A stretch of 64,000 nt of DNA from Candidatus Nomurabacteria bacterium (GCA_028286645.1 JAQBRF010000002.1:58518-122517); one strand, 5' to 3'; shown: positions 13,950-64,000, counted from the first letter of the stretch. A program made the numbers and translations. Notes: generated from the letters alone by a model not told the origin.

Positions 13950-14035
13950 TCTGCTACATTCATTTCTGAATTAGGCCTTTACTCTAACATGATTTCAAGA
14001 TTTTTCGAAGAAATTATGATAGTATTTCCTTACTT

Positions 14036-29652: not shown

Positions 29653-30570
29653 ATGGAACTTCCCTATGAATTAAAAGATCTATATAGACATTGGCCACAA
29701 CATATAAAAAAAGCCCCTCTTACGCAAAATGTTAAAAACAAAAAACTCTTGAATGATATTAAGTGGTTTATTAAAGAGAGGATAAATATCTGGGAAAAGA
29801 AAACTTCTGGCGCATCTCCGCCATTTACAAAAGATCCTATTTTATCTACCTATCGATTTTGTAATATATTCAGAGAGTTTGATAAGCAGACCATAGCCTT
29901 TCACACAAGATTAAATCCACTAAGAAATGACTTCCCTTTATGGCTTTTAAATATGTTTTATTTCCGAATGGTGGCAAATATAGAAACAATAAATACGCTT
30001 GGACTTCTTTCTTATAATAAAAAGGACGGTGAAGAGTTTTATAAAAGAATCATGGTTTCACCAAGACCCCGCTTCGGAACTCCTTATGTATTTCCTATAA
30101 GCACCATAATGCGTAGTGAAACTCCGACCAGAGAGGCTTTTATATCATTTTACCTTCCGAGTGTTATGAAAAAGATTGCAAAAGAAATAAAGACGTGGAG
30201 CAAAGAGTCGGTTTACGATGGGGTAGAAAGGATACTTCCTCTTTTTGGTTACAATCTCCGTTTTCTTTGGACAGAAGTCTTAATCGACGTTGCCTATCAA
30301 TATCCGAAGCGTTTAGATTTATTTAAAAGATTCCCTATAGGTCCGGGATCAGCGCCGACATTTAAAAGAATTGATAATAGCAAGGACCCTTCTATTTTGG
30401 TTACGGAATTATCCTTGACCTCTGTTTCAACCGGGGTTTCCTTTAATGGAAAAGCTCTGCGGCTATCTGCAGAAAACTGGGAAGGAGTTGGATGTGAATT
30501 TAGGAAATATACGAATTTAAAAAACGGGCACGGGAGAAAAAGATTATATAAAAAATCGCCCAGCAAGTGA
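29653..30570 (+). CDS. Hypothetical protein (305 aa), no recognisable motif
   Basis: Long clean ORF adjacent to the tRNA-Arg scar region. Confidence 0.55.
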   Translation: MELPYELKDLYRHWPQHIKKAPLTQNVKNKKLLNDIKWFIKERINIWEKKTSGASPPFTKDPILSTYRFCNIFREFDKQTIAFHTRLNPLRNDFPLWLLNMFYFRMVANIETINTLGLLSYNKKDGEEFYKRIMVSPRPRFGTPYVFPISTIMRSETPTREAFISFYLPSVMKKIAKEIKTWSKESVYDGVERILPLFGYNLRFLWTEVLIDVAYQYPKRLDLFKRFPIGPGSAPTFKRIDNSKDPSILVTELSLTSVSTGVSFNGKALRLSAENWEGVGCEFRKYTNLKNGHGRKRLYKKSPSK

Positions 30571-41755: not shown

Positions 41756-41891
41756 ACCTTTATATAATTTATTAGGTGTAAGTATTATATCACGAAAGAA
41801 ATAAAAAGTCAAGGGGCAAAAGAAAACCGCCCTGGGGGGCGGTCTGGGGGTCGAACCTCGGGAGAGGCTCAGAGGGGTGTGGGCGCTTCGG

Positions 41892-42692
41892 TTACTTTAC
41901 CGCGCCGATGTGCTTGTAGGTGCTCTTGTCGTCGATGCCTTGCTTGGCGGCGACGCGGAACGACCACTGTTGCTCCGTCTCACCGTTGTTCGGCGCGACG
42001 ATCTCCACATCCGAGCAGTTCGCGGGTTTGCCGCTGATCTGCTTGGTTGCGTAGCAGTGCATCGGGCTTTGCGCCGACGAGTTCGGGTGGTACCAGCCCC
42101 AGAAGGTGCTGGCGTTCGCCGGAAACGACGGAAGCGGAGCCGAGCTCGAAGCAGTCCTTGCGGGCTGCACTGCCGGCGGAGATGCCGGACGATTACCGTG
42201 GGTCACGGTGGGGCGTTTGCACCCGAGAACCGCGGCACAGATGGCGTCAGACGTCATCTGTTGCTGCGGAGTGGAAGCCTTGAGCGCGAGCGCGTTCACG
42301 CTTCCTTGAAGGCCTTCAAGTGAGGCCTTGGTCGCGTCGGCGGTTTTCACCGCGGCTTCCGCTTGTTTTTTCGCGGTCGTCGCGTTGCTGTCCACGGCCT
42401 TGAACTCGTCGCTCGCGAGGGCCAGTGTTTTGGCTTTCTCGGTGACGCCTGCGACGGCGTTGTCGAAATTGCTATTGCTGGGCGTCGTGAACGCCAGGAG
42501 GATCGCGAGGATCATTGCGCCTACGCCGGCCGCGATCGCCAGATTCGCGCGAGTGTGGTCCGGGGAGGGAGCCAGATCTGAGGCGGCGTAGATCTTGCCG
42601 TCGTGGCCTTGAACGAAGACGCGCGTGTCTCCGGCCGCAACCATCTTAGTCACTTCTGCGTCGGTAAAGCCTTTCGGTTGGCGATTAGCCAT
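41892..42692 (-). CDS. GC-rich Ala-rich membrane-anchored protein with conserved Cys-containing C-terminal domain
   Basis: GC3-rich codons; SD GAGGTG; N-terminal cytoplasmic segment then TM helix (LAIAAGVGAMILAILLAF); C-terminal W.W...PM.C...K.I...C..V.AP..GET..QW shared with 42881..43963. Confidence 0.55.
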   Translation of the reverse strand: MANRQPKGFTDAEVTKMVAAGDTRVFVQGHDGKIYAASDLAPSPDHTRANLAIAAGVGAMILAILLAFTTPSNSNFDNAVAGVTEKAKTLALASDEFKAVDSNATTAKKQAEAAVKTADATKASLEGLQGSVNALALKASTPQQQMTSDAICAAVLGCKRPTVTHGNRPASPPAVQPARTASSSAPLPSFPANASTFWGWYHPNSSAQSPMHCYATKQISGKPANCSDVEIVAPNNGETEQQWSFRVAAKQGIDDKSTYKHIGAVK

Positions 42693-42761
42693 GGTTCACC
42701 TCTTAGGTTATGTGGTGGAACTCTGATAAGCGTTTGGAAATCCATTCGCTCGTTAATATGT

Positions 42762-42789
42762 AGTATACACTATTAAAAAGAATTGTCAA
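42762..42789 (-). promoter_or_regulatory. Consensus sigma70-type promoter TTGACA-N17-TGtATACT for 41892..42692
   Basis: Gene sense: cTTGACAattctttttaatagtgTATACT. Confidence 0.6.
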
Positions 42790-42880
42790 GTGATATATGA
42801 AATAAAAATAGTATAAAAAAGCCCTCCACTGTGGAGGGCTTCGACCAGGATTGGTCTGATGTGCGGAGGATCCGCTGGCG

Positions 42881-43963
42881 TTAGAGCTTTTCGGCTCTGA
42901 GCGCCCACTGATCACGCGTTTCGCCGGCGACCGGCGCGAGAACTTTCATCTCCGAGCAGAACGGCGGGTTGGGCGCATTGATCAGCTTTTCGACGACACA
43001 TGCCATCGGGTTCTGGGAGGTTGCCTTTCCCGGCTTCCATTTCCAGAGATCGACACCGTTTTCCGCCGGACGCGCCGCCGGAACGACAGTTCGCGTTACG
43101 CTCGCCGAGGAGGTTTGCGTTGCGGTCGATCCGCTTTGTGTCGTGACCACAGATGACGAGGTGGCAACTGCGCCTTCGACGAGCTCGGGTTTTACCGTAA
43201 GCCTGTCGCAGGTCGGCTTGTCTTTCACATATGCGACGACCCCTTGGGTGGGGAAGCTGCACGGGCTGAGACTTGCCGGCACGGTTTGGCGTTGCACCGT
43301 CGTGCGTTGCTGCGAAAACTCGCTGCCACCCAGCTGAACGGGCATATTGCCACCGTTTTCGCTGATGTTCGCGGGAAACGTCGCTGCGGGACGCATCGGG
43401 ATCGAGGTCTGAATGATCCGACCTTCGTCGCCATCGTTGACGATATACGGATCGCACCCGTAGGTGAGACCGTATGCAACTCCTACAGCGCCGCCGATTT
43501 TCGCACCGTCGACGAACTTGTGACGGGTGAATTTGGCGACCACTCCTCCGAAGAGGGCGGCTGCGGCACCGTCGACGAGCCCCGTCATTCCGCGATCCGA
43601 AAGCGAGCAGCGAACGCGTCGTCCGCCCATGTTCGCGGTAAACGGCTGACCGTACTGCACACCTTGCGGCATGAAGTAAGTCTGATTGCCGTACGCGAAC
43701 ACCGGCTGGTTCCCGATCATCGGAACAGCGTAGGATTGACCTGCGGAGCACGCGAGGTGTCCTTGCGGGCAATTCCACTGGCCGTTGACGAGAATGTTGG
43801 GTGCCGAACCTTGCTGTTGTCCCGTCATGGTCGGAACGACCATTTGGGCTTGCGTCCCGAAGGACGCGGCGGCGAGGGCAACTGCGAAAAGCGTGTTGAG
43901 CTTGTTCATGCGGTTCTCCTGAATTGACTTGGTACGGGGTCTTGTAGACGGACCAAAGGTCAA
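42881..43963 (-). CDS. GC-rich secreted protein, paralogous C-terminal domain to 41892..42692
   Basis: Signal peptide MNKLNTLFAVALAAASFGTQAQ; SD AGGAG; same C-terminal domain. Confidence 0.55.
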   Translation of the reverse strand: MTFGPSTRPRTKSIQENRMNKLNTLFAVALAAASFGTQAQMVVPTMTGQQQGSAPNILVNGQWNCPQGHLACSAGQSYAVPMIGNQPVFAYGNQTYFMPQGVQYGQPFTANMGGRRVRCSLSDRGMTGLVDGAAAALFGGVVAKFTRHKFVDGAKIGGAVGVAYGLTYGCDPYIVNDGDEGRIIQTSIPMRPAATFPANISENGGNMPVQLGGSEFSQQRTTVQRQTVPASLSPCSFPTQGVVAYVKDKPTCDRLTVKPELVEGAVATSSSVVTTQSGSTATQTSSASVTRTVVPAARPAENGVDLWKWKPGKATSQNPMACVVEKLINAPNPPFCSEMKVLAPVAGETRDQWALRAEKL

Positions 43964-44319: not shown

Positions 44320-46020
44320 ATGGCTATTACATTTGATGACGCGGTACAAAATCATGAGTTGGAAGACTTACGCAAAAACGAAGAGGAGGAATTAGTAAAA
44401 ATTCTTTCAGATAAATACGGACTTCCGTATATTGACCTGCGCGGGCTGGCTCCGGAACCAGACGCTATGCAAGTAATAAAAGAAGAAGACGCCAGAGAAG
44501 TGGGGCTCGCGCCTTTTAAAATAGTTGGCAGGAAACTTTATATAGCCACAATCTCCCCGGGAAATCCAAGAATGGAGGAGCTTCTTCGTCCACTAGAAAC
44601 CAGAGGAACTGAATTAATTTTATTTCTTTGTTCTCACGCATCACTTAACCATGTGCTTTCTAGATATGTGGATTTAAATAAAGGATCAAAAGTAGAAAGC
44701 GGAATGCTTGAGCTTACGAAAGAAAAAATCCACGGGCTCATGGAAAAGTTTAATGACGTTGATGAATTAAAAAAAACCTTTGACGAAATATCACATTCCC
44801 AGGTTCTATATAAAACCACAAGAATTATAGAAGTCATAATCGCCGGAGCGCTTAAATTCGACGCGAGCGATATACATATAGAACCAGAAGAAGACAAGGT
44901 AAGATTGAGATATAGATTAAATGGAAATTTGATCGACATAACTTTCTTTGATTACGAGCTGTTAAAAAACATCACGAGCAGATTAAAGCTTTTGTCCGGT
45001 CTTAAGCTCTCAACATCTGCTAACGCACAAGATGGAAGATTTAGCATCGACTTAGATGAGGTAGAGGTGGAAGTGCGCGTGTCTGTAATACCTTCAAACT
45101 ATGGAGAAGGATTTGTGATGAGATTGCTTGACCCAAGGCACTCTGTGACAGATTTAAACAACATCGCATTTTCTCCAAAACTCCGCGCTCTTGTAGAATA
45201 TTCGCTTAGCAAGCCAAACGGAGTTATTCTTACAACCGGCCCGACAGGGTCCGGTAAGACTACCACTTTATATGCGTTTTTACACAAGATGTATAACCCT
45301 GAATTAAAAGTAATTACAATTGAGGACCCGGTAGAATACCATCTGGAAGGAATTACTCAAACTCAAGTAGAGGAAGAAAAAGGATATACATTCGTTGCTG
45401 GATTACGAGCCGCACTTCGTCAAGATCCTGACATAATAATGGTGGGAGAAATCCGAGACACAGACACAGCAAAAGTCGCGATCAATGCTGCGCTCACGGG
45501 GCATTTAGTTTTCTCAACACTTCACACCAATACCGCCGCTGGAACTATACCGCGATTAATCGACTTAGGAGTAAACCCAAAAGTTATCGCTTCTGCCCTA
45601 TCGCTCGCCCTTGCTCAAAGACTCGTAAGAAGCCTTTGCAATGAATGCAAGCAAGAATATGAAAGCAGTGAAAAAGAGTCCCGTGTAATTACGAATGTTT
45701 TAGGAGAAATGAAAATAGCAGGAAAAGAGGAGTCCATGATGGGACACACCCCTCTTGTTACTTATAAATTATTTAAACCTGTGGGCTGCAGCAAATGTGG
45801 AGGAACTGGATATTCTACTCGAATAGGAATATTTGAAGCGATTAGCATGAATGCGGATATTGAAAAGATTTTAATCACGAATCCTAGTGAAAGAGAAATA
45901 CGGGAAGTTTCTAAAAACCAAGGAATCCCAACGCTTAAGGAGGATGGTATAATTAAGATGCTCGAGGGACTTACTTCGTTTGAGGAATTGGGCAAGACAA
46001 TTGATCTTTTCGGAGAATAA
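44320..46020 (+). CDS. pilB: Type IV pilus assembly ATPase PilB / GspE-family secretion ATPase
   Basis: Walker A GPTGSGKTT; Asp and His boxes; tetracysteine CNEC...CSKCGG; terminator aaaccc-tttc-gggttt at 46068..46086. Confidence 0.9.
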   Translation: MAITFDDAVQNHELEDLRKNEEEELVKILSDKYGLPYIDLRGLAPEPDAMQVIKEEDAREVGLAPFKIVGRKLYIATISPGNPRMEELLRPLETRGTELILFLCSHASLNHVLSRYVDLNKGSKVESGMLELTKEKIHGLMEKFNDVDELKKTFDEISHSQVLYKTTRIIEVIIAGALKFDASDIHIEPEEDKVRLRYRLNGNLIDITFFDYELLKNITSRLKLLSGLKLSTSANAQDGRFSIDLDEVEVEVRVSVIPSNYGEGFVMRLLDPRHSVTDLNNIAFSPKLRALVEYSLSKPNGVILTTGPTGSGKTTTLYAFLHKMYNPELKVITIEDPVEYHLEGITQTQVEEEKGYTFVAGLRAALRQDPDIIMVGEIRDTDTAKVAINAALTGHLVFSTLHTNTAAGTIPRLIDLGVNPKVIASALSLALAQRLVRSLCNECKQEYESSEKESRVITNVLGEMKIAGKEESMMGHTPLVTYKLFKPVGCSKCGGTGYSTRIGIFEAISMNADIEKILITNPSEREIREVSKNQGIPTLKEDGIIKMLEGLTSFEELGKTIDLFGE

Positions 46021-51861: not shown

Positions 51862-52953
51862 CTATCTATTTAGTGGCATTAGAAGATAGGTTAAAGTTAC
51901 GTCTTCTTTCCCTTTTATAAACATGGGTCTGTTAGATGTGGTGAACAAGCAGTTTATATTGTCTCCTTTTATATGAGGAAAAATTTCCAAGAAGTATCGG
52001 TTGTTATATTTTACTTCAATATCTTCACCTTCTTTCTCTACATGGATGGTGTGGGTTATTTGACCAACGGATTCGTTTTTACTGTGCAAAGTAAGTTTAT
52101 CTCCTGTAAAAATACATTCTACTTGAGAATATTGTTCGTTAAAAAAGGTAGTAAGGGTTAGAGCTTTTTGTAATTCTTCTTTAGATAAAGACACCGTCGT
52201 TAGAAACTCTTTAGGAAAGAGTTGTTGATAGTCCGGAAACTGTCCTGTGGTCGTATGAATAGAAAGAGTAAGATTTGAAGATGAAACAGAAAGAATGCTT
52301 TCGTAAACAGAAAAACTTAAATCCCCTTCTTCCTCATTTAGGATTTGCAGTATATCCCCTATATGTTTTTGAGGAATCAAGAGAGAGCAGTCAAAAGATG
52401 TTTCGTTTGGGATAGTCTTTTCAACCAATCTATATGAATCTGTGGCAACAGAAAAAATAAGGTTATTTTTCGTATAAACATAAACAGAAGCAATTTCCGG
52501 TTTTATTTCGGTAGTTGCCGCAGCAAAAGAAACTTCTTTTAAGAGGGTGTTAATACTTTCTTTGGTCAGAGTCCCAATAGATTCTCCTTGATTAGGAAGT
52601 TTAGGGAAATCTTCATATGGGGTGGTTTTTATTTCAATAACCCCTTCTTCTGTGGTGATAGAAAAGACTCCTTCAATTAATTCACACATTAAAACAATGT
52701 CAGATGATTGAAAAGTTGATAAAATCCTTAAAAAGGTTTCCCCTAAAATAACACATGTTCCGTTTGTCATTCCTTTTACTGGAATACTTTTCTCACAAAA
52801 TATTTCAAGGTTTGTCGCTCTTAAACTTAACATGTGTCCGTCTAATTCAAGGTGTATATTTTGAAGATAATTTTGAGATTGTTTTTTACTTCTGGCGCGT
52901 GACACTTGTTGAACGGCTTTTATAAAGACATCTCCTTTGCATTCGAATTTCAT
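51862..52953 (-). CDS. dnaN: DNA polymerase III beta sliding clamp
   Basis: Length, position downstream of dnaA, MKFECKGDVFIKAV start. Confidence 0.85.
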   Translation of the reverse strand: MKFECKGDVFIKAVQQVSRARSKKQSQNYLQNIHLELDGHMLSLRATNLEIFCEKSIPVKGMTNGTCVILGETFLRILSTFQSSDIVLMCELIEGVFSITTEEGVIEIKTTPYEDFPKLPNQGESIGTLTKESINTLLKEVSFAAATTEIKPEIASVYVYTKNNLIFSVATDSYRLVEKTIPNETSFDCSLLIPQKHIGDILQILNEEEGDLSFSVYESILSVSSSNLTLSIHTTTGQFPDYQQLFPKEFLTTVSLSKEELQKALTLTTFFNEQYSQVECIFTGDKLTLHSKNESVGQITHTIHVEKEGEDIEVKYNNRYFLEIFPHIKGDNINCLFTTSNRPMFIKGKEDVTLTYLLMPLNR

Positions 52954-53271
52954 AAGGAAAGTATACCTTGTAGGTAAAAAACTGGATAGCTAAAAATTAA
53001 GTAAGCATCTGCCTCAGCTCCTAACTAAGGATATCTTCTGTAAGGTATATATAATATATGATATTAAGTATAGGTCTGTGGAGTGTGGGGATAAGGCACA
53101 AAATCCTTAATTTACAGTCTATTTTAGAAAATCTAGAATACATGAAATGAAAGGAATCGATGTATATTTTGTTTATAAAAACACAAAATCACTTAGATTT
53201 TCTTAATAAGAAACGCTTTATTCATGAGTTATTCTTTTGTTATCCACAAAGATTTCCACAACAAAAATAAA
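52954..53271. promoter_or_regulatory. Putative oriC (dnaA-dnaN intergenic region) with DnaA boxes and AT-rich unwinding element
   Basis: Perfect TTATCCACA at 53240..53248; TTATCCCCA (reverse) at ~53085; AT-rich aaggtatatataatatatgatattaagtata. Confidence 0.55.
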
Positions 53272-54618
53272 TTAAGCAATCATTTGGCGGATATCTTCAA
53301 TTTCCCTGCTTAGCTGAGGATTATCTTTTAAAAGACCTTTTATTTTTTCATAAGAATGTATCACTGTCGTGTGGTCTCTCCCCCCTAGGCGGTCTCCTAT
53401 CATGGGGTATGAAATATCAAAATCTTCCCTAAGGAGATACATAACTATTTGTCGAGGCTTAACAACATCCTTCCTTCTGGTTTTGTTGTAAATGTATACG
53501 TCTGGAATATGGTAATAATCAGCGATAAGTTTAACAATTTCAGGAATTGAAATGCTTTTCTTTGCTCTTGCGCTATTTTTTAAGAGATTTTTTACATCAA
53601 GCAGGGTTATGGCTTGGTTTTTCATTTGAATGTGTCCGAAAATGGAGGTCATAACCCCCTCCAACTCTCTAATGTTTCCTTGAATTGATTCAGCAACGTA
53701 TTCAAGAACTTCCTGAGGGATTTTATCTCTATATTCTTTAGTCTTGGACTGTAAAATCGCAAGACGAGATTCAAAAGGCGGAACATTTATATCTACGATC
53801 ATCCCTTGGTTGAACCGAGAGCGCAGCCGGTCTTCTAGTCCTATGATTAAATTCGGATGAACATCTGAAGAAAATATAATCTGCTTATTCATCTCATAAA
53901 GAGAATTAAATAAATGGAACAACTCATCCTGAGTTCTCTCTTTTCCATTAATAAATTGGATATCGTCCATTATAAAAACATCATATTTGCGATATTTTTC
54001 CTTAAAGACATTTATCTTGTTTAAATTCGTGGCATTAACCATGTCCATATAAAATTTTTCAAGGGAAGTGTAAAAGATTTTTCGTTCAGGGTATTTCTTT
54101 TTAACTGTGTTTCCTATAGCCTGCATCATGTGGGTCTTTCCTAGTCCTGTAGGCCCATATACAAAAAGCGGATTATAAACGATCCCAAGGCCATTTATGA
54201 CTGCCTGAGATGATGCGTACGCAACTTCGTTAAAAGACCCGACTATAAAATTATCAAAAGTATATCGAGGGTTTAATCCGTCGTCTTTATTTACATATAA
54301 ATCCTGCAGTGGAAGAGTTTGTCCGGTAATGGCTATGTGCTGAGCCTTTTTTTGAAGTGTTTCTGGTTTTACAACTGTAAAAACAACCGACCTAACTCCT
54401 TCGTGTATCATCCGGAGTATACGGAGAATAAATTTATGATATTTTTGATTGAGCCAGTCCTTAACAAACTCATTAGGCACTCCTATCGTCACCTCCCCCT
54501 CTTTGTAATCTATAATTCTTGTGTTTTTAAACCAAGTATTGAAGTTAACTCTAGAAAGCTCAATCTCAATTTGAGACAAGGCACTATTCCAAAGCTGTTG
54601 GTAATCCATAATTCTCAA
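53272..54618 (-). CDS. dnaA: Chromosomal replication initiator DnaA
   Basis: AAA+ GPTGLGKTHMMQAIG; C-terminal DnaA-box binding domain. Confidence 0.9.
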   Translation of the reverse strand: MRIMDYQQLWNSALSQIEIELSRVNFNTWFKNTRIIDYKEGEVTIGVPNEFVKDWLNQKYHKFILRILRMIHEGVRSVVFTVVKPETLQKKAQHIAITGQTLPLQDLYVNKDDGLNPRYTFDNFIVGSFNEVAYASSQAVINGLGIVYNPLFVYGPTGLGKTHMMQAIGNTVKKKYPERKIFYTSLEKFYMDMVNATNLNKINVFKEKYRKYDVFIMDDIQFINGKERTQDELFHLFNSLYEMNKQIIFSSDVHPNLIIGLEDRLRSRFNQGMIVDINVPPFESRLAILQSKTKEYRDKIPQEVLEYVAESIQGNIRELEGVMTSIFGHIQMKNQAITLLDVKNLLKNSARAKKSISIPEIVKLIADYYHIPDVYIYNKTRRKDVVKPRQIVMYLLREDFDISYPMIGDRLGGRDHTTVIHSYEKIKGLLKDNPQLSREIEDIRQMIA

Positions 54619-54819: not shown

Positions 54820-54954
54820 ATGTCTGTAACATACCAACCAAAAAGAAAGAAGAGAGGAACCACTCACGGCTTCCTAGTCAGGATGCGTACAAAAGGAGGG
54901 AAAGCCATTATTTCTCGCCGCCGAAAAGATGGAAGGAAGAAGCTTTCTGTTTAA
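54820..54954 (+). CDS. rpmH: 50S ribosomal protein L34
   Basis: [44 protein letters not shown]; not in ORF track (44 aa). Confidence 0.85.
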
Positions 54955-54959
54955 TTTAC

Positions 54960-55274
54960 ATGATTCCGAAATCGGAACGTCTAACAAAGCAGGATTTTAA
55001 CGGGTTACGCCCAAAGATTATTTTTCGGGGCACATATGTTGATGTGGCTGTTTCAAAGAGCGAAGTAACTAAATTTGCATGCATTGTTTCAAAAAAAAGG
55101 ATAAAAAAAGCAACCGACAGAAATACAGCAAAGAGAAGAGTTTACTCAATCTTAAGAGATGTGAGGCCAAAGAATAATTTTTTCGTTCTTCTTTACCCCA
55201 AGCAAAATGCTATTTCGGGAGAATTTTTAAAGATAAAGGAAGAAATATCTCAAGCGTTTGATACAATAGATTAA
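54960..55274 (+). CDS. rnpA: RNase P protein component
   Basis: Position after rpmH; basic 104-aa protein ...KRIKKATDRNTAKRR. Confidence 0.8.
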   Translation: MIPKSERLTKQDFNGLRPKIIFRGTYVDVAVSKSEVTKFACIVSKKRIKKATDRNTAKRRVYSILRDVRPKNNFFVLLYPKQNAISGEFLKIKEEISQAFDTID

Positions 55275-55276
55275 CT

Positions 55277-55999
55277 ATGTTCCATACAATATTTTACGAA
55301 CCCATATATAACCTCCTTGCCACTATTTTAAACATAGTGCCTTTGCATGATGTCGGGCTAGGAATCGTGCTTATTACAATTGTAGTAAAAGTCATACTTT
55401 TGCCGCTGAATCTTTCTGCATTGCGGACTCAATATGTAATGAAAAGAATTGAGCCTGAAATGAATAAAATAAAAGAGCTTCAAAAGACCAGCCCTCAAGA
55501 AGCTTCAAAAAAGATGATGGAGCTTTACAAGAAAGAAAATGTAAACCCTTTTGCAAGCCTTCTTGTTTTTATTATTCAAATGCCAGTGCTTATAGCCCTC
55601 TACTTCGTTTGTAGGAACGGACTACATGCAGACCCGAACTCCTTGTATTCTTTTGTTACATTTCCGGAATCCCTACATACCGTCGCCTTCGGACTATTTG
55701 ATGTAACAAAGAAGAACATATACATAGCCGTTATTGCAGGGATTTCTTCATATATTTTAGCTCGCAGACAAACACAAAGCATGATTTCTAAGAAGGTGGG
55801 TAGCGGAGAATCCTTCCAAGATCAGCTTATGAAGTCAATGAGAGTGCAACTCTTATATGTTCTTCCTATAATTATTACATTTTCTGCGGCGGTACTGCCA
55901 GCAGCCCTAGGCCTTTATTGGGTGGTGAGCAATGTAATTAATTATTTACAAGATGTGTATACAAAAAGAAGACTGGCACATTTAAAACCGCTTGATTAA
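55277..55999 (+). CDS. yidC: Membrane protein insertase YidC (short form)
   Basis: Conserved rpmH-rnpA-yidC synteny; multi-TM; KMMELYKKENVNPF motif. Confidence 0.8.
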   Translation: MFHTIFYEPIYNLLATILNIVPLHDVGLGIVLITIVVKVILLPLNLSALRTQYVMKRIEPEMNKIKELQKTSPQEASKKMMELYKKENVNPFASLLVFIIQMPVLIALYFVCRNGLHADPNSLYSFVTFPESLHTVAFGLFDVTKKNIYIAVIAGISSYILARRQTQSMISKKVGSGESFQDQLMKSMRVQLLYVLPIIITFSAAVLPAALGLYWVVSNVINYLQDVYTKRRLAHLKPLD

Positions 56000-57012
56000 G
56001 TGCCTCCTTTTAATTGTGTAAAGCAGGCATTTAAATCGCAAGCGTAATTCTTTACCGCACACATACTATACGACCCAGTGCCCGGATTTATGGGGCATGC
56101 CCACTTTGGGATGCTAGAGGAAAACCCAGAAGACTCATTACAGTCTCGACTTGCCGCATTTGGGTTATCTCCATTTCCACAACAGTTGTAAGCGGCAAAC
56201 ACTCCAGCAAGTGGAGGTACTCCGGGGTACACTTGTTTTGCCGTGGTTAATTTTTCTTTAATTTTAGAAACACCAAGAGATATGTTTGTGCGAGGGTCTA
56301 ATATATTAGGAGTGCATGCTCCGCTTTGGTTTACCTGCATTAGTCCGCAGTTTGTCGTGCCGTTGTCATTTATCGCGCTTGGAGGAGGGTTCACAACTCC
56401 ATGGGACTCTCTGCACATAATTACAATGGTAAGGGCTGGATCTACTCCTACACGGTTGGATTCTTGATTAATAATATCTAAATACTGCTGGTAGTTGCAT
56501 CCAGCAAGCGCTGAGCACTGCGCTCCCCTGCAAACATTTCCACTTGATAAAGATGAGATTGCAGATTGAGTGTCGGTGCAAGATTTAGAGTTTGTGATTG
56601 AAGACACTTGAGTCGGAACAACATTCGTCAAACTCCCCCCCGCTGCCACCCCTGCCCTTGCTGCACGCAGCCCAGTTAATCCAATATCCCCCAGTAATAA
56701 ATCTTTGTTAAATGAGTAAAGAAGAGGAAATAGTAAAAATACCCCCAGAAGTCCGAGGATCACCCTTTTAAACTCAGCATTAGACTTGCTAATAGCCTGT
56801 TCAGATGCTGCCAGTCTAATTACTCCAGCGTGTCCAAACATAACAAATCCTGCCGTAGCTAAGATTACAAATGAAAGCATTAATAAGAAGCTGGTAGAAG
56901 CATAGAAAGATGGAGCTGAAGCATTAAAATTAGGATTTTGTATTCCTAGGGCTTTAGAGGCGGTGGACTCGAGAAGGGTATAAGATGTCGCCATGCTATT
57001 TACGGGTATCAA
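55996..57012 (-). CDS. VirB1-like lytic transglycosylase (SLT domain) with N-terminal two-TM pilin-like segment
   Basis: CRESHGVVNPP...CGLMQVNQ matches the SLT E-S...GLMQ motifs. Confidence 0.6.
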   Translation of the reverse strand: MIPVNSMATSYTLLESTASKALGIQNPNFNASAPSFYASTSFLLMLSFVILATAGFVMFGHAGVIRLAASEQAISKSNAEFKRVILGLLGVFLLFPLLYSFNKDLLLGDIGLTGLRAARAGVAAGGSLTNVVPTQVSSITNSKSCTDTQSAISSLSSGNVCRGAQCSALAGCNYQQYLDIINQESNRVGVDPALTIVIMCRESHGVVNPPPSAINDNGTTNCGLMQVNQSGACTPNILDPRTNISLGVSKIKEKLTTAKQVYPGVPPLAGVFAAYNCCGNGDNPNAASRDCNESSGFSSSIPKWACPINPGTGSYSMCAVKNYACDLNACFTQLKGGT

Positions 57013-57964
57013 ATATTAAGTCAATGCTAGTTTCTGCCTTCTGCAGGTTCCTTTTTATATTTGAAATAGAAATTGCTAGATTTTTTGCTCCGTAACTATT
57101 TTCGGCCGGGCTAAGTGAAAGCAGTCTGCCACCTATCGGAGTTATAGGAAGCCCGTCTAGCAACCAATCGTCAACCTCTCCACCAGAAGCTACTCCTTTG
57201 GTAGATAAATAGTATGGCTCTAAGGCTAATGTGAAATCTTTCGTCGTTTCAAAACGCCTTTCGATCATTCTAGAGTAATCAACTCCTAAAATATCGTCAT
57301 ATGTATAAAGAGCGGGGATTATATCGTGCGGGTAAACGGTAATACTTTTCTGAGAGGATAATCCTCCAGGTGAAGACACTGCCACCTTTATTATATTTGC
57401 ATCATTTAAATAGTCTAATTTAAGCGATACAGATTGCTTCCCTAAGCCTGAAGCACTGCTAAGGAGCTCATCATTTAGATACCACGAGTATGAGAGGCGG
57501 TTTCTTGAAACAAGGGCGCCACCTTCGCTAATGTTGGGGATGGCCACCACCCGAATCCCTGCCCCTTCTCCTGGTAAAGACCTGCCGTCGTAAAAAAGTG
57601 GAACCTCGCTCTCGGGAGATTCAAAAAGCAAGTCAATAGAAGAGGGAACAATTGTAACTGATGTACTAAGGGTCGATCCGTCAGGGGCGACAACAGAAGC
57701 AGTTACTGTGGTTTGAGTGCCGAGTCCTCCAGTTTTAATAGTAAGATTTTTTGCTCCTAATCCGGAAAGAGTGGTTTTCCCCGAAACAATCCAAGTAATA
57801 TTAGAAGTATTTACATCAAAAGAATAACTGCTTAAAGTTAAATTAACTGATGAGTTAGGAGTAGGGTTAGACGGGCTTATGTTAATTGTCGCTTCAATTT
57901 CTCCAAAAGAAACAGACAATGTGCTTACAAAAATGGAAAGGATTAATAATATTTTTAATTTCAT
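56996..57964 (-). CDS. Secreted protein of the T4SS-like cluster
   Basis: Signal peptide; operon position. Confidence 0.5.
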   Translation of the reverse strand: MKLKILLILSIFVSTLSVSFGEIEATINISPSNPTPNSSVNLTLSSYSFDVNTSNITWIVSGKTTLSGLGAKNLTIKTGGLGTQTTVTASVVAPDGSTLSTSVTIVPSSIDLLFESPESEVPLFYDGRSLPGEGAGIRVVAIPNISEGGALVSRNRLSYSWYLNDELLSSASGLGKQSVSLKLDYLNDANIIKVAVSSPGGLSSQKSITVYPHDIIPALYTYDDILGVDYSRMIERRFETTKDFTLALEPYYLSTKGVASGGEVDDWLLDGLPITPIGGRLLSLSPAENSYGAKNLAISISNIKRNLQKAETSIDLIFDTRK

Positions 57965-59778
57965 ACACCTTTTGCTTTTTCTGCCTCTTCCTTCATTGCT
58001 TTTATTTGTAATAATTGAGAAGGGTCGCTTGTGATTATTTGATCTTCAGTATAAGACGCTACGACTTTTATGGCTACATGTTTAAGTCCGGCGAAAAAGA
58101 TTCCCTCCCCCACTCCAGACTCTAAGAGTAAAAACTTTTCTTCATCAGTTAAGTTAAATGTTTTCTGAACCATATCAATTGACGACGGGGATTGCTTTAA
58201 TAGAAGCTGGATAGACGAGTTTGTGATAATTGGCAATCCATATGGAGACTTAAGGAAGTCCCCTACGTCTTGCGTAATGGTGGCAAGTCCTAAATAATAC
58301 TTTCTACCACGCTTTGCAAGCCCGAATAAAAATGATGCTGTGTCATCGTTTTTCATCATGATCCACGCTTCGTCCACCACAAGCAATCTCTTCTTTATAT
58401 CTTTTCTTACCGCATTCCATATGTAGTGAGTAATTATATACATGGCAACCGGCTTTAATTCCTCTTCCATGTCTCGAATGGAGAAACAGACAAGCTTTTT
58501 ATTTATATCCACATTCGATGGCTGGTTAATAAATCCAGCCCATGTTCCCTTGGTGTACTTGGAAAGCCTTGCCTGAAGATCTTCTGATCCGGTGATTCCT
58601 CCAAGCACTGTTTCAAAGTCGGATAGTAATGGCGGTTCAAGCTGGGTAAAATCATTGTCCCCTGAAATATCTTTTAAAGCATATGTCTCTGTAATTGCTT
58701 GGTCTACAATTGCGTCTTCTTCTGGCGTAAGCCCTCCTAACATGACCCGGAAAAGCCCAACAAGGTTTACGATGTTTGAGCGAAGCACCTCAGAGGGAGA
58801 TTCATCCTCTCCTGGGTGTGGCAAATCGAATGGATTAATATGGTGTTCCGAAGTTAGAGAGATATCGAAATATCTTCCTCCGACAGATTCTGCTAGATAT
58901 TCATACTCTCTTTCCGGGTCGATAATGATCACCTCGGTATCGAACATAAGAGTTCTAAGAATCTCAAGTTTGGCCATATAGCTTTTTCCTGATCCTGACT
59001 TGGCAAATATAATGGAGTTGTAGTTTTCCAGCGAGAAACGGTCAAAAAGAATCAAGCTTCCGTTGTGCCTGTTTAATCCGTACAAAATTCCCTTGTCTGA
59101 TGAAAGATCAAATGAAACGAAAGGAAAGAACGAGGAAAGTGGCGAGGTATTTAGTTTATTTTTTATTCCCAGAAGGTCCTCTCCCACGGGAAGAGTAGAA
59201 ATAAAACCAGTATCTTGCTGGAAAAGGGCTGGTTTAACATATACAAGCTTGCTTTCAAGAATGTTTTTTATTTCATTTTCCACTTTGTTTAGCTCCTCCT
59301 CGGATCCTCCATAAAGAGTTATATAAAGAGAAACTTCAAACATCTTTTCTTGAGCTTGGGTCAGTCCATCCCGTAGATCTTCTAAATCCTTGTACGCTAC
59401 ATCTAGTGTGGGATCTCGCACTAGCCCCTTTTCCTCTCTTGTCATTATTTGGCTCTCGACCTCTGCTACTTTTCTCTGGAATTTTTTCATTACGTCTCCT
59501 GTGTCCAGCGGATTTACATGTATTGCCACATCAAAAACTTTGTCTAGGTTTATTATCGGGCTTAACCAATTATCAGTTAAGTATCTGGGATAAGAAATTA
59601 CAAAGTATGAGCGCACGACGTTTGTCCCTAAGTTTAAAGACTTAGGCTGAACTCCAAGAGCGCTCGGAGCTAAGATGTCTTTTAGCTGCATTTCCGCAAC
59701 CTTATATACCTGGTCTGGCAAAATCGGAGCGACAGCGGATGTTATTTTCTTAGCGTGTAAAAAATCAAATAATCCCAT
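57961..59778 (-). CDS. virB4: VirB4/TrbE-like type IV secretion ATPase
   Basis: Walker A AKSGSGKSYM; Walker B LLVVDEAW. Confidence 0.8.
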   Translation of the reverse strand: MGLFDFLHAKKITSAVAPILPDQVYKVAEMQLKDILAPSALGVQPKSLNLGTNVVRSYFVISYPRYLTDNWLSPIINLDKVFDVAIHVNPLDTGDVMKKFQRKVAEVESQIMTREEKGLVRDPTLDVAYKDLEDLRDGLTQAQEKMFEVSLYITLYGGSEEELNKVENEIKNILESKLVYVKPALFQQDTGFISTLPVGEDLLGIKNKLNTSPLSSFFPFVSFDLSSDKGILYGLNRHNGSLILFDRFSLENYNSIIFAKSGSGKSYMAKLEILRTLMFDTEVIIIDPEREYEYLAESVGGRYFDISLTSEHHINPFDLPHPGEDESPSEVLRSNIVNLVGLFRVMLGGLTPEEDAIVDQAITETYALKDISGDNDFTQLEPPLLSDFETVLGGITGSEDLQARLSKYTKGTWAGFINQPSNVDINKKLVCFSIRDMEEELKPVAMYIITHYIWNAVRKDIKKRLLVVDEAWIMMKNDDTASFLFGLAKRGRKYYLGLATITQDVGDFLKSPYGLPIITNSSIQLLLKQSPSSIDMVQKTFNLTDEEKFLLLESGVGEGIFFAGLKHVAIKVVASYTEDQIITSDPSQLLQIKAMKEEAEKAKGV

Positions 59779-59780
59779 GG

Positions 59781-60413
59781 TTATAATGTTTGTATCTTAG
59801 GTGCGGCTCTGTCCTGCTCTCCTGGATTAAAAAGTTTATAAAACAACTCAACCACCTCTTCAGTTCCTAGCTTTTGAGATCGAAGCCCGAATCGTGAAAG
59901 GCCTTGCATAACCGTTGAAACTCTTTGTTCTAGCTGAATTCTGGAGGTCTCAAATTGAGATGCATCACTTTTTGGAGCCCCGCTAATATTAAATGAAAAA
60001 GATGAGCCTTTAGAACCCCCCCCGCTGCTTTGAGAATAAGGAATAACAATAAAAAAGTGCTTAGTCATTATATTCGTCTCCTCGGTAAACTTATTAATGA
60101 ATCCCATGTATTCGTTAATTTGGATTTTTAAGAGATCTTCTTTTATTTCTTTGCTTCGTTCTTCCAACAAATCAATGTATGGCTTAATGTTGAGTCGTCT
60201 TGATTGTATAAAGAATTGTATTGGAAAATCCAGAGTATTTAAAAGATTTTGGAATTGAAGGAGTGTGGCCCGCTGCTCGTCTTCGCTTTTCAAAGCCAGA
60301 TTCAAAGAGCTAGTTATAAGAATGGATCTGAGCTCCCCTCCTTTTAGTTCGATAATTCCGTCTCGGACTCGTTCAATGGGAACAAAGTCCTGCGTTGCTA
60401 CACCTTTTGCCAT
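59781..60413 (-). CDS. Hypothetical protein of the T4SS-like cluster
   Basis: Operon position. Confidence 0.45.
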   Translation of the reverse strand: MAKGVATQDFVPIERVRDGIIELKGGELRSILITSSLNLALKSEDEQRATLLQFQNLLNTLDFPIQFFIQSRRLNIKPYIDLLEERSKEIKEDLLKIQINEYMGFINKFTEETNIMTKHFFIVIPYSQSSGGGSKGSSFSFNISGAPKSDASQFETSRIQLEQRVSTVMQGLSRFGLRSQKLGTEEVVELFYKLFNPGEQDRAAPKIQTL

Positions 60414-60436
60414 ATAACTTCTAGTATACAGTAGAA

Positions 60437-60877
60437 TTATTTGATCCCTCCTTCATCCTGTGGGTTGCGATCAAGAACATCAAGTCCTAGCGATATATCA
60501 TGAAGCTTGTCCCTCTTCGCTTTTGAGAGAAGTATCTCTTTTGTGGTGTCTGTTACAACTTTATCAATATGCTCTTCTATTTTTTGGTTTTTCCCATCGG
60601 GCTGCTTCCAGGTATAAATTTTTACCCCCGTGTAGTAAGAAAAGGCACTTTCTAGTATTTCTCCAAAAGTTCTATTGTTTACTTTTACAAAAGCCAGGGC
60701 AAGAAAAAGTCCCGCAACGGGAATTATTACAATAACAGCAATTGTTTTTATGGGGATGAAGGTCCAAATAAGGAAGGAAAACCCGCCAGCACCAAGCAAA
60801 TATCCAAATTGCTTTAAAGTAAAAGGCCCGATAACCTTATCTTCCACGTCAATGAATTGTGGTACGCGAAATTGCAT
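60437..60877 (-). CDS. Two-TM membrane protein, VirB3/PrgI-like
   Basis: Small, two adjacent TM helices, directly upstream of the VirB4-region genes. Confidence 0.45.
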   Translation of the reverse strand: MQFRVPQFIDVEDKVIGPFTLKQFGYLLGAGGFSFLIWTFIPIKTIAVIVIIPVAGLFLALAFVKVNNRTFGEILESAFSYYTGVKIYTWKQPDGKNQKIEEHIDKVVTDTTKEILLSKAKRDKLHDISLGLDVLDRNPQDEGGIK

Positions 60878-60895
60878 ATTAAGTAAAGTATATCA

Positions 60896-61651
60896 CTAGA
60901 CCTCTTCCGCAACCTCCCGGTAAGGGTCTACGTTGTATTTGGTAGGGGCTTTGCTATATGACGCAGACTTTAATTTAGCGTCTACCACTTTATTGCCATC
61001 ATCTCCAAACATATAATTTTCTAGGGTTACGTTGTTGTCTAAGGTATTCTCCCCTTCTTTTTTCTCCGCATCTATTTTATTTATCTGCTCTTTTATATGA
61101 TTTAGCCGCGCATCGACTTCTTCGTCTTTTGGAATAGAGCCAATTAGCTGGAGCTGTTCTAAAAGCTGAGATCTGGATCCTGGCGTTAAAACTGTTGTTT
61201 TCTTTGCCTGAGGATTGGGATTAGGATTATTTGGTTTAACAGCCTCGCGATTCGTGTTATCTAAAATTTCTTTTCTTAACTCATCAGGGGATCTCACGCC
61301 CTCAAATACTAATGTTTTAATCTCAGGATTGGTTCCTTTCCCGAGAATGGATATGCGGGCTTTTTCTAAAATGCTTTTATCCAAGTCCCCAGCGAGGTTC
61401 CGGGCATCATCCGGCGACATTTTTAAAATTTCTTCAAGAGCCCTCATCACATCCGACGGCTGCAGGGCCCCAATTAAGATAAACGAAATTATGTTTGATA
61501 AAGGCACATAAGACGTCATCGGAAGTTTATAAATCTTTCCTAGAGTCGCCGTTACCGAATTTATTTCACCGCTAGAAAGCATCCCCTGTATTTCAGGGCT
61601 TGCTTGATTTATCAGCTCATCAATGTTTGTCGCTATATAGGAGAGGTTCAT
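60896..61651 (-). CDS. Hypothetical protein of the T4SS-like cluster
   Basis: Operon position. Confidence 0.45.
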   Translation of the reverse strand: MNLSYIATNIDELINQASPEIQGMLSSGEINSVTATLGKIYKLPMTSYVPLSNIISFILIGALQPSDVMRALEEILKMSPDDARNLAGDLDKSILEKARISILGKGTNPEIKTLVFEGVRSPDELRKEILDNTNREAVKPNNPNPNPQAKKTTVLTPGSRSQLLEQLQLIGSIPKDEEVDARLNHIKEQINKIDAEKKEGENTLDNNVTLENYMFGDDGNKVVDAKLKSASYSKAPTKYNVDPYREVAEEV

Positions 61652-61652
61652 G

Positions 61653-63845
61653 TTATGCGGCTTTCTTTAAATCATCTTCATCCGGATGAGAGGCTGCCGC
61701 TCCTGTGGTAGGAGGTTCATCTGCCGGGTGTACGGCTACTGGAGGAGGTGGTGGTGGAGGTGGAGGCGGGGTATCGCGACGCGGCGCGTCAACATTCTTT
61801 ATAGGAACTCCTTGTCTCATAAATGCCGGAGTATCGAGATTCGCCCCCGCTGATCTCTCGGCATGAGTTTGAATTGCAGGGTCCTTTTTGTTTTCAGCGC
61901 GTCTTGCAGCGGCCTCAGCGGCAAGAGTCTGAAGATCTTTATTCATGTCGGTGGGAGTAAGGGTTTCTGAATGAGTTGGAGTGGATGTGACTTGTGGTTC
62001 TGGGGGTTCAACATTTAGCGGATTAGTCAGCGGGGTAACGGGCTCAGTCGCTTTACCTGTCAGAGCGTCAGCGAGATTTTGCTGGGATTCCGCCATTTTT
62101 CTATTTGTTTCCCTATCTTGTTGCCTCTCACTTTCTTTTATTTTTTCTTTCTGTTCTGAATAAGCAAGTTTGGCATCCTGTTTTAATAGTTTATCTCGCG
62201 TCTCCTGATCTTGAGAATCGAAAAACTTTTGACGCTCTTGCTCTTCTAGTGACTGATATTCTGACGTGGCTTTGCCCCGGCCTGATTTTATGGAATCTTT
62301 AAGTTTTTGTCTTAGGTCTGGTCTTCCCAATAGAACTCCACCCGCTCTGTTTACGTATCTGGTTATCTGGGGGTCCATGGATTCATCCACATCCCCTTTT
62401 CGATGGAGCAGATCTCCGTTCTGATCATAAACATTTCTTTGGAACTTCCTTTTGAAATCTAACTCTTCTACTTTCTCTGTATCCCGCGCTTCTCTTGCTT
62501 TTTCAAACCCTAATTTTCTACCTTCTCCCATTCCCATTCCGACATTTTTTAAATTTCCCCCAATAAGTTGAGTATTTCTTGCATCAAAAGAGCTGTTGGC
62601 AAGGGAATTGCTCATAGAGTACAAATTTTTTCCTATAAATGAGTCGCGGTTATTTCTCATCCATGTACTATCTCTTAGTGCCATTGCACGATTTCCTATA
62701 GTTCCACGTGCTAGTAGACCCGCCCCACCGGTTGCCACCCCTAGTCCGAACCCACCCACTTTGCCCATAAAGTTTGTCGCCATATTTCCCGCCTCCCCTC
62801 CTATCTTTTTCGTGACTTTATACATTATATGTAGCATGACCAACATCATAAGGGTATTAAAGAACACTTGGGCGTTCCCACCGATCCCATTTTTAAATGC
62901 TCCGCCAGGAGACTGGAAAACTTCTAAGAACTTTAGAGTGAGTGCAAACATAATCATAAATACAGGTGCGACGGCGAGTTGTTCGAAATAAAGCTTTCTC
63001 ATCTTTACGGCAGCATCTCCAAGCCAAGGGACTACAGCGTCTACAAATAAGAGGGGCGATGCAATAGTAAGGAATACCAGTATCGCCGTTCTCACCACCA
63101 ACATAAGAGAAATCATAAATAAAATGAAAGCCGCGTATAATACATAAGCAGTTACCATAAGTGCGCCAGGAGTGCTATTTGTATCTGTTATGTCTTTTGC
63201 GTTACCGGGTTTATTTGTAACTCCGGAAATCATATTACTTAAGCCAAGCCTGTTTACGATAAGAGTTCCAGGGGTGCTTTGCCCAGAACCATTAACTAAA
63301 TTCCCCATACTTCCTCCTAGTGCGTCTGACCCCACCGCTCCAGCATAAACATTTAAAGCTATGACATTAGAAACATCGATGGGTATCCGAGAAATCGGAT
63401 ATGATAAGTTAACGAAAAGAGCGTATATCACCACCCATGGAATATATTTCGCGAACTTATCATCTTTTCCGATAATATAAAGAAACCCTAAGTAAAGACC
63501 GGCAAATAAAATTACTACATTTAAAGCTTGTCTAACTACTAACCAGGCAGTATATAATGAGTCTGGTGCCCAGGAAGAAAAATTTAATATTCCTAACTGC
63601 ACTCCTAAATTAAATATGTTGGCTGATAACCATAAAAGAAACGTAGCAATAGGTAAAAGAGTGTGTTTTATTACCCAGGAAATCAACGAATCCATACAAC
63701 CCGCTAAATTTCCATCAAAAAGATTACATAGTGATACATCTTTACTCTGGTTGTCAGCGGTTTGAGCAAGGGTTGTAGCAGTTTTATTGGCAGAATTATT
63801 CAAATTCTGATTATATTGGTCCCTACTTATTTCGCCTCTTTCCAA
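61653..63845 (-). CDS. VirB6/TrbL-like polytopic membrane protein with long C-terminal extension ending in a poly-Pro tract
   Basis: At least 6 TM helices in the N-terminal 350 aa; C-terminal charged coiled region and PPPPPPPPPPP; track start is a non-ATG codon, an in-frame ATG lies ~24 nt upstream. Confidence 0.6.
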   Translation of the reverse strand: MERGEISRDQYNQNLNNSANKTATTLAQTADNQSKDVSLCNLFDGNLAGCMDSLISWVIKHTLLPIATFLLWLSANIFNLGVQLGILNFSSWAPDSLYTAWLVVRQALNVVILFAGLYLGFLYIIGKDDKFAKYIPWVVIYALFVNLSYPISRIPIDVSNVIALNVYAGAVGSDALGGSMGNLVNGSGQSTPGTLIVNRLGLSNMISGVTNKPGNAKDITDTNSTPGALMVTAYVLYAAFILFMISLMLVVRTAILVFLTIASPLLFVDAVVPWLGDAAVKMRKLYFEQLAVAPVFMIMFALTLKFLEVFQSPGGAFKNGIGGNAQVFFNTLMMLVMLHIMYKVTKKIGGEAGNMATNFMGKVGGFGLGVATGGAGLLARGTIGNRAMALRDSTWMRNNRDSFIGKNLYSMSNSLANSSFDARNTQLIGGNLKNVGMGMGEGRKLGFEKAREARDTEKVEELDFKRKFQRNVYDQNGDLLHRKGDVDESMDPQITRYVNRAGGVLLGRPDLRQKLKDSIKSGRGKATSEYQSLEEQERQKFFDSQDQETRDKLLKQDAKLAYSEQKEKIKESERQQDRETNRKMAESQQNLADALTGKATEPVTPLTNPLNVEPPEPQVTSTPTHSETLTPTDMNKDLQTLAAEAAARRAENKKDPAIQTHAERSAGANLDTPAFMRQGVPIKNVDAPRRDTPPPPPPPPPPVAVHPADEPPTTGAAASHPDEDDLKKAA

Positions 63846-64000
63846 TTTAACTCGATTATCGGCGGCATTTAACTGGTCTGTTGCTAGTATTTTTGCTTGT
63901 ATTGCAGAGTTTTTTATTCCCGGGTCTACTTCTCCCGTGGACCCTTCGCCAACAGGCGTGGGGGTACTGCTAGTATTAATAATATCGTCTAAGTAAGCTA

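Follow-up and report, generated by a model that had tools for sequence, protein, structure and literature searches.

A probable patescibacterial type IV secretion system near dnaA in a 'Candidatus Nomurabacteria' genome

Genes and proteins of the cluster

The window analysed here is a stretch of 64,000 nt (JAQBRF010000002.1:58518-122517, assembly GCA_028286645.1), and its host genome is a Paceibacteria ('Ca. Nomurabacteria') metagenome-assembled genome. Seven co-oriented open reading frames (ORFs) on the minus strand lie within 55996-64000 and make up a candidate type IV secretion system (T4SS) gene cluster (Table 1). They encode a VirB6-like polytopic membrane protein, a soluble protein named U251, a PrgI/VirB3-like protein, TrsD, VirB4, a secreted protein named S322 and a fusion of a pilin-like module with an SLT lytic transglycosylase domain. 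The spacing between successive ORFs is 1, 18, 23, 2, -4 and -17 nt, which is operon-like packing. A first-pass annotation, made from the sequence alone, had described seven co-oriented T4SS-like genes in this place, and all the ORFs were found where it had put them.

The window proteins were compared with Pfam and NCBIfam profiles using the curated cutoffs, and AlphaFold2 (AF2) models were searched with Foldseek against a PDB set of 350,542 chains. Relatives of VirB4 were collected by a back-translated search with one genome per GTDB species, which gave at least 560 relatives; the best 80 of them are the loci compared below (L002-L081). Four cluster proteins, VirB4, PrgI, the SLT protein and TrsD, were identified by scores above curated thresholds or by strong E-values. 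Among the earlier assignments, VirB4 and SLT/VirB1 passed the profile cutoffs, while for VirB6 sub-threshold or indirect support was obtained.

VirB4, the energising ATPase, is encoded as two pieces, an N-domain protein (TrsD) and a 605-aa ATPase. The ATPase piece scores 372.9 bits (E = 3.3e-111) with NCBIfam conju_CD1110, whose cutoff is 325, and this match spans positions 183-733 of the 752 in the model; it also matches Pfam P-loop_TraG (E = 5.4e-24). The Walker A and B motifs that had been reported for it are both present, as AKSGSGKS at residues 259-266 (58981-59004) and LLVVDE at residues 465-470 (58369-58386). The upstream gene had been listed as one of two unknowns, but its product is TrsD, a free-standing VirB4 N-terminal-domain protein. 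It matches the NCBIfam models VirB4_plasma (positions 104-236, E = 6e-13), CD1110 (positions 2-121, E = 1.4e-5) and TrsD (E = 2.5e-4), the first and the last of these below their cutoffs, and it has a precomputed match to PF26593 (TraC-like). In the window the trsD and virB4 frames differ and are separated by a 2-nt gap, and trsD is a separate ORF in all 80 loci. Because the split is kept in all relatives, it is natural, and a single frameshifted trsD/virB4 gene is ruled out.

The next gene upstream encodes a two-transmembrane (two-TM) protein that had been called VirB3-like, in agreement with its match to Pfam PrgI (E = 8.5e-10, 39.5 bits against a cutoff of 27). PrgI, TrsD and VirB4 jointly tile the NCBIfam model of the VirB3-VirB4 fusion of mycoplasma integrative and conjugative elements (ICEs), at positions 18-118, 104-236 and 292-893, respectively.

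The first gene of the cluster in the window encodes the polytopic protein. Its ORF stays open to base 63998, so the gene is cut by the window end and the 730 aa seen are a minimum; the orthologs are 700-1090 aa long. A helical TM core (about 62559-63746) is followed by a charged, low-complexity C-terminal tail of about 300 aa that contains a run of ten prolines (P x10). The window protein has no Pfam match, and its match to NCBIfam ICE_Mbov_0396_TM (1.6e-5) is below cutoff. That family comprises membrane proteins encoded beside VirB4 in mycoplasma ICEs. Pfam TrbL/VirB6 is matched by 4 of 40 orthologs (best 2.9e-4), and a search of PDB sequences with the VirB6-family profile returned noise only. 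The AF2 model of the TM core, built from 47 sequences, reached a pLDDT of 80 and a pTM of 0.71, and Foldseek ranks 1-4 were all R388 TrwI/VirB6 (probability 0.90-0.96, TM-score 0.43-0.47, with E-values of just 0.17-0.37). These matches lean towards a VirB6-like protein, presumably the membrane channel, short of proof. The VirB6/TrbL-like protein with a poly-Pro tail proposed at first pass is therefore kept as to its tail, and its family assignment leans to VirB6 on indirect support that is weaker than that of the other calls.

Between the VirB6-like and prgI genes lies U251, the second of the two proteins listed as unknowns, and this one stays without any match. Its N-terminal region is helical and conserved, and a Pro-rich linker leads to a C-terminal D-P-Y-R-E motif that is nearly invariant; there is no TM segment. 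No Pfam, NCBIfam or PDB relative was found, and its profile searched against PDB sequences gave noise. The family occupies the same cluster position in 69 of about 80 loci (iterated hidden Markov model, HMM). From its sequence, the D-P-Y-R-E end looks like a docking peptide.

The secreted protein of the first-pass annotation is S322, which carries a Sec signal peptide (MKLKILLILSIFVSTLSVSFG). A protein of identical sequence is listed at NCBI as JWN37_152, from a 'Candidatus Nomurabacteria bacterium' metagenome-assembled genome. Its AF2 model (pLDDT 93) is all-beta with three tandem beta-sandwich domains, and the Foldseek neighbours are adhesins, S-layer proteins and Ig/FnIII tandems (E = 1e-7 to 1e-8). 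The family follows virB4 directly in 76 loci (iterated HMM). On the basis of this model, S322 is a putative surface, cell-wall-spanning or adhesive component. An analogue of VirB8/PrgL was also considered and is ruled out, as the fold is an Ig/FnIII tandem rather than an NTF2 fold.

The last gene encodes the fusion protein. Its start is most likely the ATG at 56994, 1 nt past the S322 stop, and not the TTG at 57012. The C-terminal part matches Pfam SLT at residues 180-283, about 56164-56475 (E = 8.5e-8, 32.2 bits against a cutoff of 21.3), and contains the E-S catalytic motif and 14 Cys. The first 125 residues of the protein were used to seed an iterated HMM, which found the N-terminal module in 75 ORFs, in one or two copies per locus and every time directly after the S322 gene. 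In the alignment of the module, an N-terminal Y-x-x-L-E-P motif precedes TM1, a charged loop and TM2. When the proteins of this family were scanned singly, 46 of 73 matched Pfam T4SS_pilin (PF18895; best 2.4e-10) and 8 of 73 matched TrbC/VirB2 (PF04956); a search of PDB sequences with the module profile gave noise only. Because of these family matches and the two-TM alignment, the earlier description as a VirB1-like SLT protein fused to a pilin-like two-TM N-terminus is correct. The C-terminal parts vary within the family, with SLT in 10 proteins, SLT_3 in 4 and NlpC/P60 in 3, and also SLT_2, Peptidase_M15_4, YkuD, CHAP and a subtilase.

The N-terminus of the module differs among relatives. 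In the clade of the window it begins at the initiator Met with no signal peptide (56668-56994), and in distant Paceibacteria the Y-x-x-L-x-P-L-P motif follows a cleavable-looking signal peptide.

Origin-proximal site and conservation

The cluster ends 1.4 kb from dnaA, in the arrangement dnaN-dnaA / rpmH-rnpA-yidC. The dnaA-dnaN spacer (318 bp, 28.6% GC) contains two DnaA boxes, one perfect (53240-53248) and one with one mismatch (Poisson P about 0.003), and the perfect one is the only such box in the window. Over the whole window DnaA boxes are not enriched (15 found versus 17 expected), and the GC skew shows no switch and no origin signal. For this reason the position of the cluster next to the replication origin, which had been proposed earlier, is a reasonable inference from the gene order and the spacer boxes rather than a demonstration.

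The best 80 VirB4 relatives, out of at least 560, all belong to Patescibacteria, mostly Paceibacterota/Parcubacteria, and are 71-92% identical to the window protein. Their common order is ksgA, X350, X584, VirB6-like, U251, PrgI, TrsD, VirB4, S322, one or two pilin(-hydrolase) genes, X438, yidC, rnpA, dnaA and dnaN. The same origin-region context was seen in about 60 loci that have enough flank; ksgA was seen in the relatives only and lies beyond the window end here. Measured against the window proteins, the median identity in distant genomes is 73% for VirB4, 51% for DnaA, 36% for YidC and 31% for DnaN, and the identity of VirB4 (57961-59778) exceeds that of DnaA (53272-54618) in 39 of 45 genomes. 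Among plasmid-borne VirB4s no identity above 36% was found, and the closest ones all come from monoderms and carry the annotation 'CD1110 family'. The fixed site, the conservation of VirB4 beyond that of DnaA and the low identity of the plasmid VirB4s together indicate that the locus is an anciently acquired, vertically inherited and strongly constrained core machine, not an island.

The relatives also bear on the part of the cluster that is cut off. In L002, the closest long relative (92% VirB4 identity), the VirB6-like protein has about 250 extra N-terminal residues, and its gene is preceded by two co-oriented genes, X350 (TM-anchored) and X584 (secreted), with ksgA upstream of both. X350 occurs in 52 loci and X584 in 56 loci (iterated HMM), and neither has a Pfam match. 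The truncated VirB6-like ORF and the position of X350 and X584 in relatives agree with the earlier statement that the cluster continues past the window end, and it very probably runs on for about 3-4 kb beyond base 64000. No existing record of the VirB6-like protein was found, and an exact 40-mer search of a metagenome collection gave no match for the continuation.

Genes for mobility were sought with Pfam in ORFs of about 220 aa or larger over the 64-kb window. No relaxase, coupling protein or integrase was found among these ORFs, in line with the first-pass annotation, which had seen neither a relaxase nor a coupling protein. The ORFs scanned are housekeeping or unrelated genes (PolA, PBP1, TyrRS, RuvB, a Mur ligase, Fpg, methyltransferases, a PilB-like T2SSE ATPase and others), and within 10 kb on either side of the cluster in the relatives the large ORFs that recur are PBP1, UvrD/PcrA, trigger factor and NusA. 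Just 2 of the 80 relatives have, beside the cluster, an ORF like a type IV coupling protein (T4CP; DUF87 + TraG-D_C). In these two the T4CP-like ORF, of 923 aa (L023, 428-3196, minus strand), stands immediately upstream of PrgI, at the place where other loci have the VirB6/U251 genes.

These data can be set against the view that the cluster is a conjugative element, such as an ICE or an integrated plasmid, or a decaying remnant of one, which sits near dnaA by chance. In its favour, every part that can be recognised has homologues among Gram-positive conjugation genes (VirB4 of the CD1110 family, PrgI, TrsD and the SLT hydrolase). However, position and order are identical in about 80 species with VirB4 more conserved than DnaA, the identity to plasmid VirB4s is at most 36%, and the window has no relaxase, T4CP, integrase or repeats. 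The GC content of the cluster (0.40-0.42) resembles that of the genome (about 0.38-0.40), and the ORFs are intact and tightly coupled. We consider a conjugative element or its remnant highly improbable, and conjugation by the cluster very unlikely.

The window differs from its relatives at the yidC end of the cluster. It has no X438, a TM-anchored protein of about 430 aa that is present in 59 loci, and it has a single pilin-hydrolase gene versus two in the closest relatives (55996-57012 versus 12796-15986 in L002). X438, X350, X584 and a second pilin paralog were searched for elsewhere in the window by tblastn, and none was found. Recombination between pilin modules, or an assembly collapse, would yield the order S322, pilin-SLT, yidC that is seen in the window. 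An independent 4.7-kb Logan contig (L001) is an exact substring of window positions 56937-61669 and stops 57 nt inside the pilin gene, as would fit a break caused by a repeat. Two pilin-hydrolase genes each were observed in L002, L004, L008-L011 and L015-L017. Within a genome the paralogous modules are 72-95% identical, and they are only about 40-50% identical to the ortholog in the window; the hydrolase domains differ between paralogs. From these identities, the similarity of the paralogs within a genome looks like concerted evolution or gene conversion of the module.

Table 1. Positions in the 64,000-nt window of the genes and domains of the cluster and of the neighbouring origin-region genes
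Feature	Position	Strand	Basis or remark
VirB6-like polytopic membrane protein, cut by window end	61653..64000	-	Foldseek, TrbL matches of orthologs, ICE_Mbov_0396_TM
U251, soluble, 251 aa, between VirB6-like and PrgI	60896..61651	-	Family conserved at fixed position
PrgI/VirB3-like two-TM protein, 146 aa	60437..60877	-	Pfam PrgI; two genes upstream of virB4
TrsD-like protein, free-standing VirB4 N-terminal domain, 210 aa	59781..60413	-	NCBIfam and PF26593
VirB4 ATPase, C-terminal two thirds of canonical VirB4, 605 aa	57961..59778	-	conju_CD1110, P-loop_TraG, Walker motifs
S322, protein with Sec signal peptide and three tandem Ig/FnIII-like beta-sandwich domains	56996..57964	-	AF2 and Foldseek
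VirB2-like T4SS pilin module, N-terminal part of pilin-SLT fusion	56668..56994	-	Iterated HMM family
Gly/Ala/Ser linker and Cys-rich extracytoplasmic SLT lytic transglycosylase domain, VirB1-like	55996..56667	-	Pfam SLT
yidC	55277-55999	+	Convergent with pilin-SLT gene, 4-nt overlap
rnpA	54960-55274	+	ORF call
rpmH	54820-54954	+	ORF call
dnaA	53272-54618	-	ORF call
dnaN	51862-52953	-	ORF call

Relation to known systems and likely function

Taken together, the cluster is very likely a chromosomal T4SS of the patescibacterial kind, from the clade derived from the conjugation machinery of monoderms (MPF-FATA), in a Paceibacteria/'Nomurabacteria' genome, and not a conjugative element. The system as such is already known, having been described in 2023-2025, and the window holds a textbook member of it. 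Quinonero-Coronel et al. (2025, Microb Genom) surveyed 3,035 genomes and found that the VirB4s of Patescibacteria form a monophyletic clade inside MPF-FATA (PMC12102498). The surveyed clade has TrsD, PrgI, VirB6, VirB2-like pilins detected with PF18895 and VirB1, which in Paceibacteria goes with VirB4; its relaxases are almost absent, and in Paceibacteria the T4SS lies near dnaA, dnaN, rnpA and ksgA (PMC12102498). The component set found here, counting the VirB6-like protein as VirB6, and the neighbourhood are alike, and nothing essential differs. In Table S3 of that study the gene at virB4 +2 in RAAC4_OD1_1 (L060) is labelled VirB2, which agrees with the order found here. Its main text does not mention the fusion of the pilin to variable wall hydrolases or the near-universality of the Ig-like S322 and of U251, nor does it contain the point that X438 and the second pilin paralog are lacking in this genome. 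The additions made here are modest: the pilin-hydrolase fusion, two near-universal uncharacterised partners (S322 and U251) and the missing X438.

A functional precedent is given by Southlakia epibionticum, which cannot grow as an epibiont without its origin-proximal T4SS (SEML1_0006-0019) and the pilins (Wang et al. 2023, Cell; PMC10633639). This system has a Gram-positive-like subunit set plus pilins, with no coupling or relaxase proteins (PMC10633639). The cluster in the window resembles that of strain ML1 in its origin-proximal site, its monoderm-type subunits and pilins, the lack of relaxase and coupling genes in the cluster and the hydrolases downstream of virB4. In contrast, S. epibionticum belongs to the class Saccharimonadia and has six separate small VirB2-like pilins, versus one hydrolase-fused module here. 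The earlier suggestion of a non-conjugative apparatus for host interaction or uptake agrees with the view of the patescibacterial T4SS taken in both studies (PMC12102498, PMC10633639).

Compared with monoderm MPF-FATA systems (the CD1110 family of C. difficile CTn2, Trs of pGO1/pSK41, Prg of pCF10 and Mbov_0396/0397 of the mycoplasma ICE), the VirB4 scores above the CD1110 equivalog cutoff, VirB3 is of the PrgI type, and the N-domain is a protein of its own, TrsD, as it is in pGO1. Like PrgK or TraG, the SLT hydrolase is anchored in the membrane, and outer-membrane core components are lacking. The VirB4 identity to these systems is just 30-36%, however, and the cluster here is chromosomally fixed, not on a mobile element. 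It has no relaxase, T4CP, oriT or PrgB-type surface adhesin, and it has a VirB2-like pilin, whereas Gram-positive T4SSs are without one. The likeness to R388/VirB-type diderm systems lies in the polytopic protein, whose best structural match is TrwI/VirB6, and in the pilin family, which matches TrbC/VirB2 and T4SS_pilin. Unlike those systems, the cluster is without the VirB7/9/10 core, VirB5, VirB8, VirB11 and VirD4, and its VirB6-like protein is 'extended' (about 800-1000 aa) with long tails.

By analogy with established T4SS biology, a hexamer of the split TrsD+VirB4 would sit at the cytoplasmic membrane, docked on PrgI and the VirB6-like protein. The pilin-hydrolase would insert with both termini outside, as VirB2 does, and the Cys-rich SLT domain would thus be placed in the wall. 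There it could cut peptidoglycan locally, in the cell's own wall and possibly in that of the host, and the protein may polymerise into a short stalk or pilus. S322 would form or decorate the extracellular part, possibly as an adhesive, and macromolecules would cross at the contact between epibiont and host. The origin-proximal placement may raise expression.

The direction of transport admits a different reading, in which the same machine works inward and imports host DNA, nucleotides or other building blocks, like ComB of H. pylori or the archaeal Ced system, and so offsets missing biosynthesis. Effector delivery and uptake from the host have both been raised as possible roles in reviews (PMC11665869, PMC12857230), and import has been raised for Saccharibacteria in the same literature. 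The lack of a relaxase and T4CP, which a donor requires, would suit an importer, and the pilin-hydrolase fusion could breach the host wall. VirB4 also has weak partial matches to the DNA-import ATPases CedB (NF041017, 1.8e-9) and CedD (NF053655, 7.6e-4), but these score 36.8 bits against a cutoff of 700 and 18.3 against 600, and they extend over only 50-70 residues of the P-loop region. The cluster gave no Pfam or NCBIfam match of the VirB8/9/10 kind, and ComB-type VirB7-10 or CedA-like genes were not seen. Moreover, the essential role of the S. epibionticum T4SS is independent of ComEC competence, and no T4SS that imports non-DNA nutrients is on record. Import is judged unlikely. We would favour protein export or contact-dependent host manipulation over import.

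The presence of a pilin in the cluster raises another explanation, namely that the locus mainly assembles a pilus or adhesion organelle, with VirB4 as a pilin dislocase and without substrate translocation. The VirB2-like pilin gene is universal in the cluster and the adhesin-type Ig-like S322 nearly so, there is no T4CP for substrate recruitment, and reviews mention a potential for conjugative-type pili. Adhesion and motility are already given by type IV pili in these bacteria, however, and a PilB-like ATPase is encoded in the window (44320-46020). The fusion of the pilin to a hydrolase of about 220 aa argues for wall remodelling over a plain filament, and the VirB6-like channel protein is retained. 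We regard an organelle of this kind as quite improbable. In an equally distant prospect, the universal pilin module, fused to interchangeable peptidoglycan hydrolases, would polymerise into a hydrolase-decorated stalk that drills through the host wall as a feeding or injection tube, with U251 and its DPYRE motif replacing the coupling protein. If true, this host-penetrating stalk would be a mode of action new for T4SSs.

Several points weigh against the assignment to a host-directed chromosomal T4SS. Many Patescibacteria have VirD4-like genes elsewhere in the genome (PMC12102498), and the relaxase and T4CP scan covered the 64-kb window. The cluster is probably important for life on a host cell, but its function is extrapolated from a Saccharibacterium, which belongs to a different class. 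At the protein level, the window's own VirB6-like protein passes no curated VirB6 threshold in the Pfam, NCBIfam, PDB-sequence and Foldseek searches. The window's pilin module itself has no Pfam match at E 0.01, so that its link to T4SS pilins runs through the family, and a pilin that carries so large a hydrolase domain may be unable to polymerise into a pilus. A VirB8-like fold was not found among the proteins modelled, the S322 model being Ig-like.

Ultrasmall bacteria that live attached to host cells, the Patescibacteria account for a large part of bacterial diversity, and their T4SS is among the few machines shown to be essential for this lifestyle. The window provides a clean Paceibacteria example of its strong conservation rather than a new kind of system. 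The pilin-hydrolase fusion, S322 with its three Ig domains and U251 with its DPYRE motif are under-described parts that could guide experiments.

Other features of the window

A patch at 41892-43963 (minus strand) has a GC content of 58.7%, versus about 38% for the genome. It holds two ORFs of 266 and 360 aa with no Pfam match, which have a Gram-negative-style signal peptide (MNKLNTLFAVALAAASFGTQAQ) and share the C-terminal motif C-S-[DE]-x-x-[IV]-[LV]-A-P-x-x-G-E-T-x-x-Q-W. The patch may be a foreign insertion or an assembly chimera. It is flanked by a 724-aa surface protein with DUF11 repeats (39638-41812, minus strand) and by the PilB-like T2SSE ATPase (44320-46020, plus strand; E = 1.6e-111). 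The presence of this ATPase indicates that type IV pilus machinery, as is typical of Patescibacteria, is encoded in the genome too.

A 305-aa protein encoded at 29653-30570 (plus strand) matches Pfam HMUDK_hel (5.9e-17), which is surprising for a chromosome of the candidate phyla radiation. HMUDK_hel is the helical domain of 5-hydroxymethyldeoxyuridine (5-hmdU) DNA kinase, a family of phage enzymes for DNA hypermodification. A second stretch of elevated GC content (48.6%) lies at 12001-14000, where ORFs at 12174-12560 (minus strand) and 12549-13013 (plus strand) stand beside tRNA-His and tRNA-Leu.

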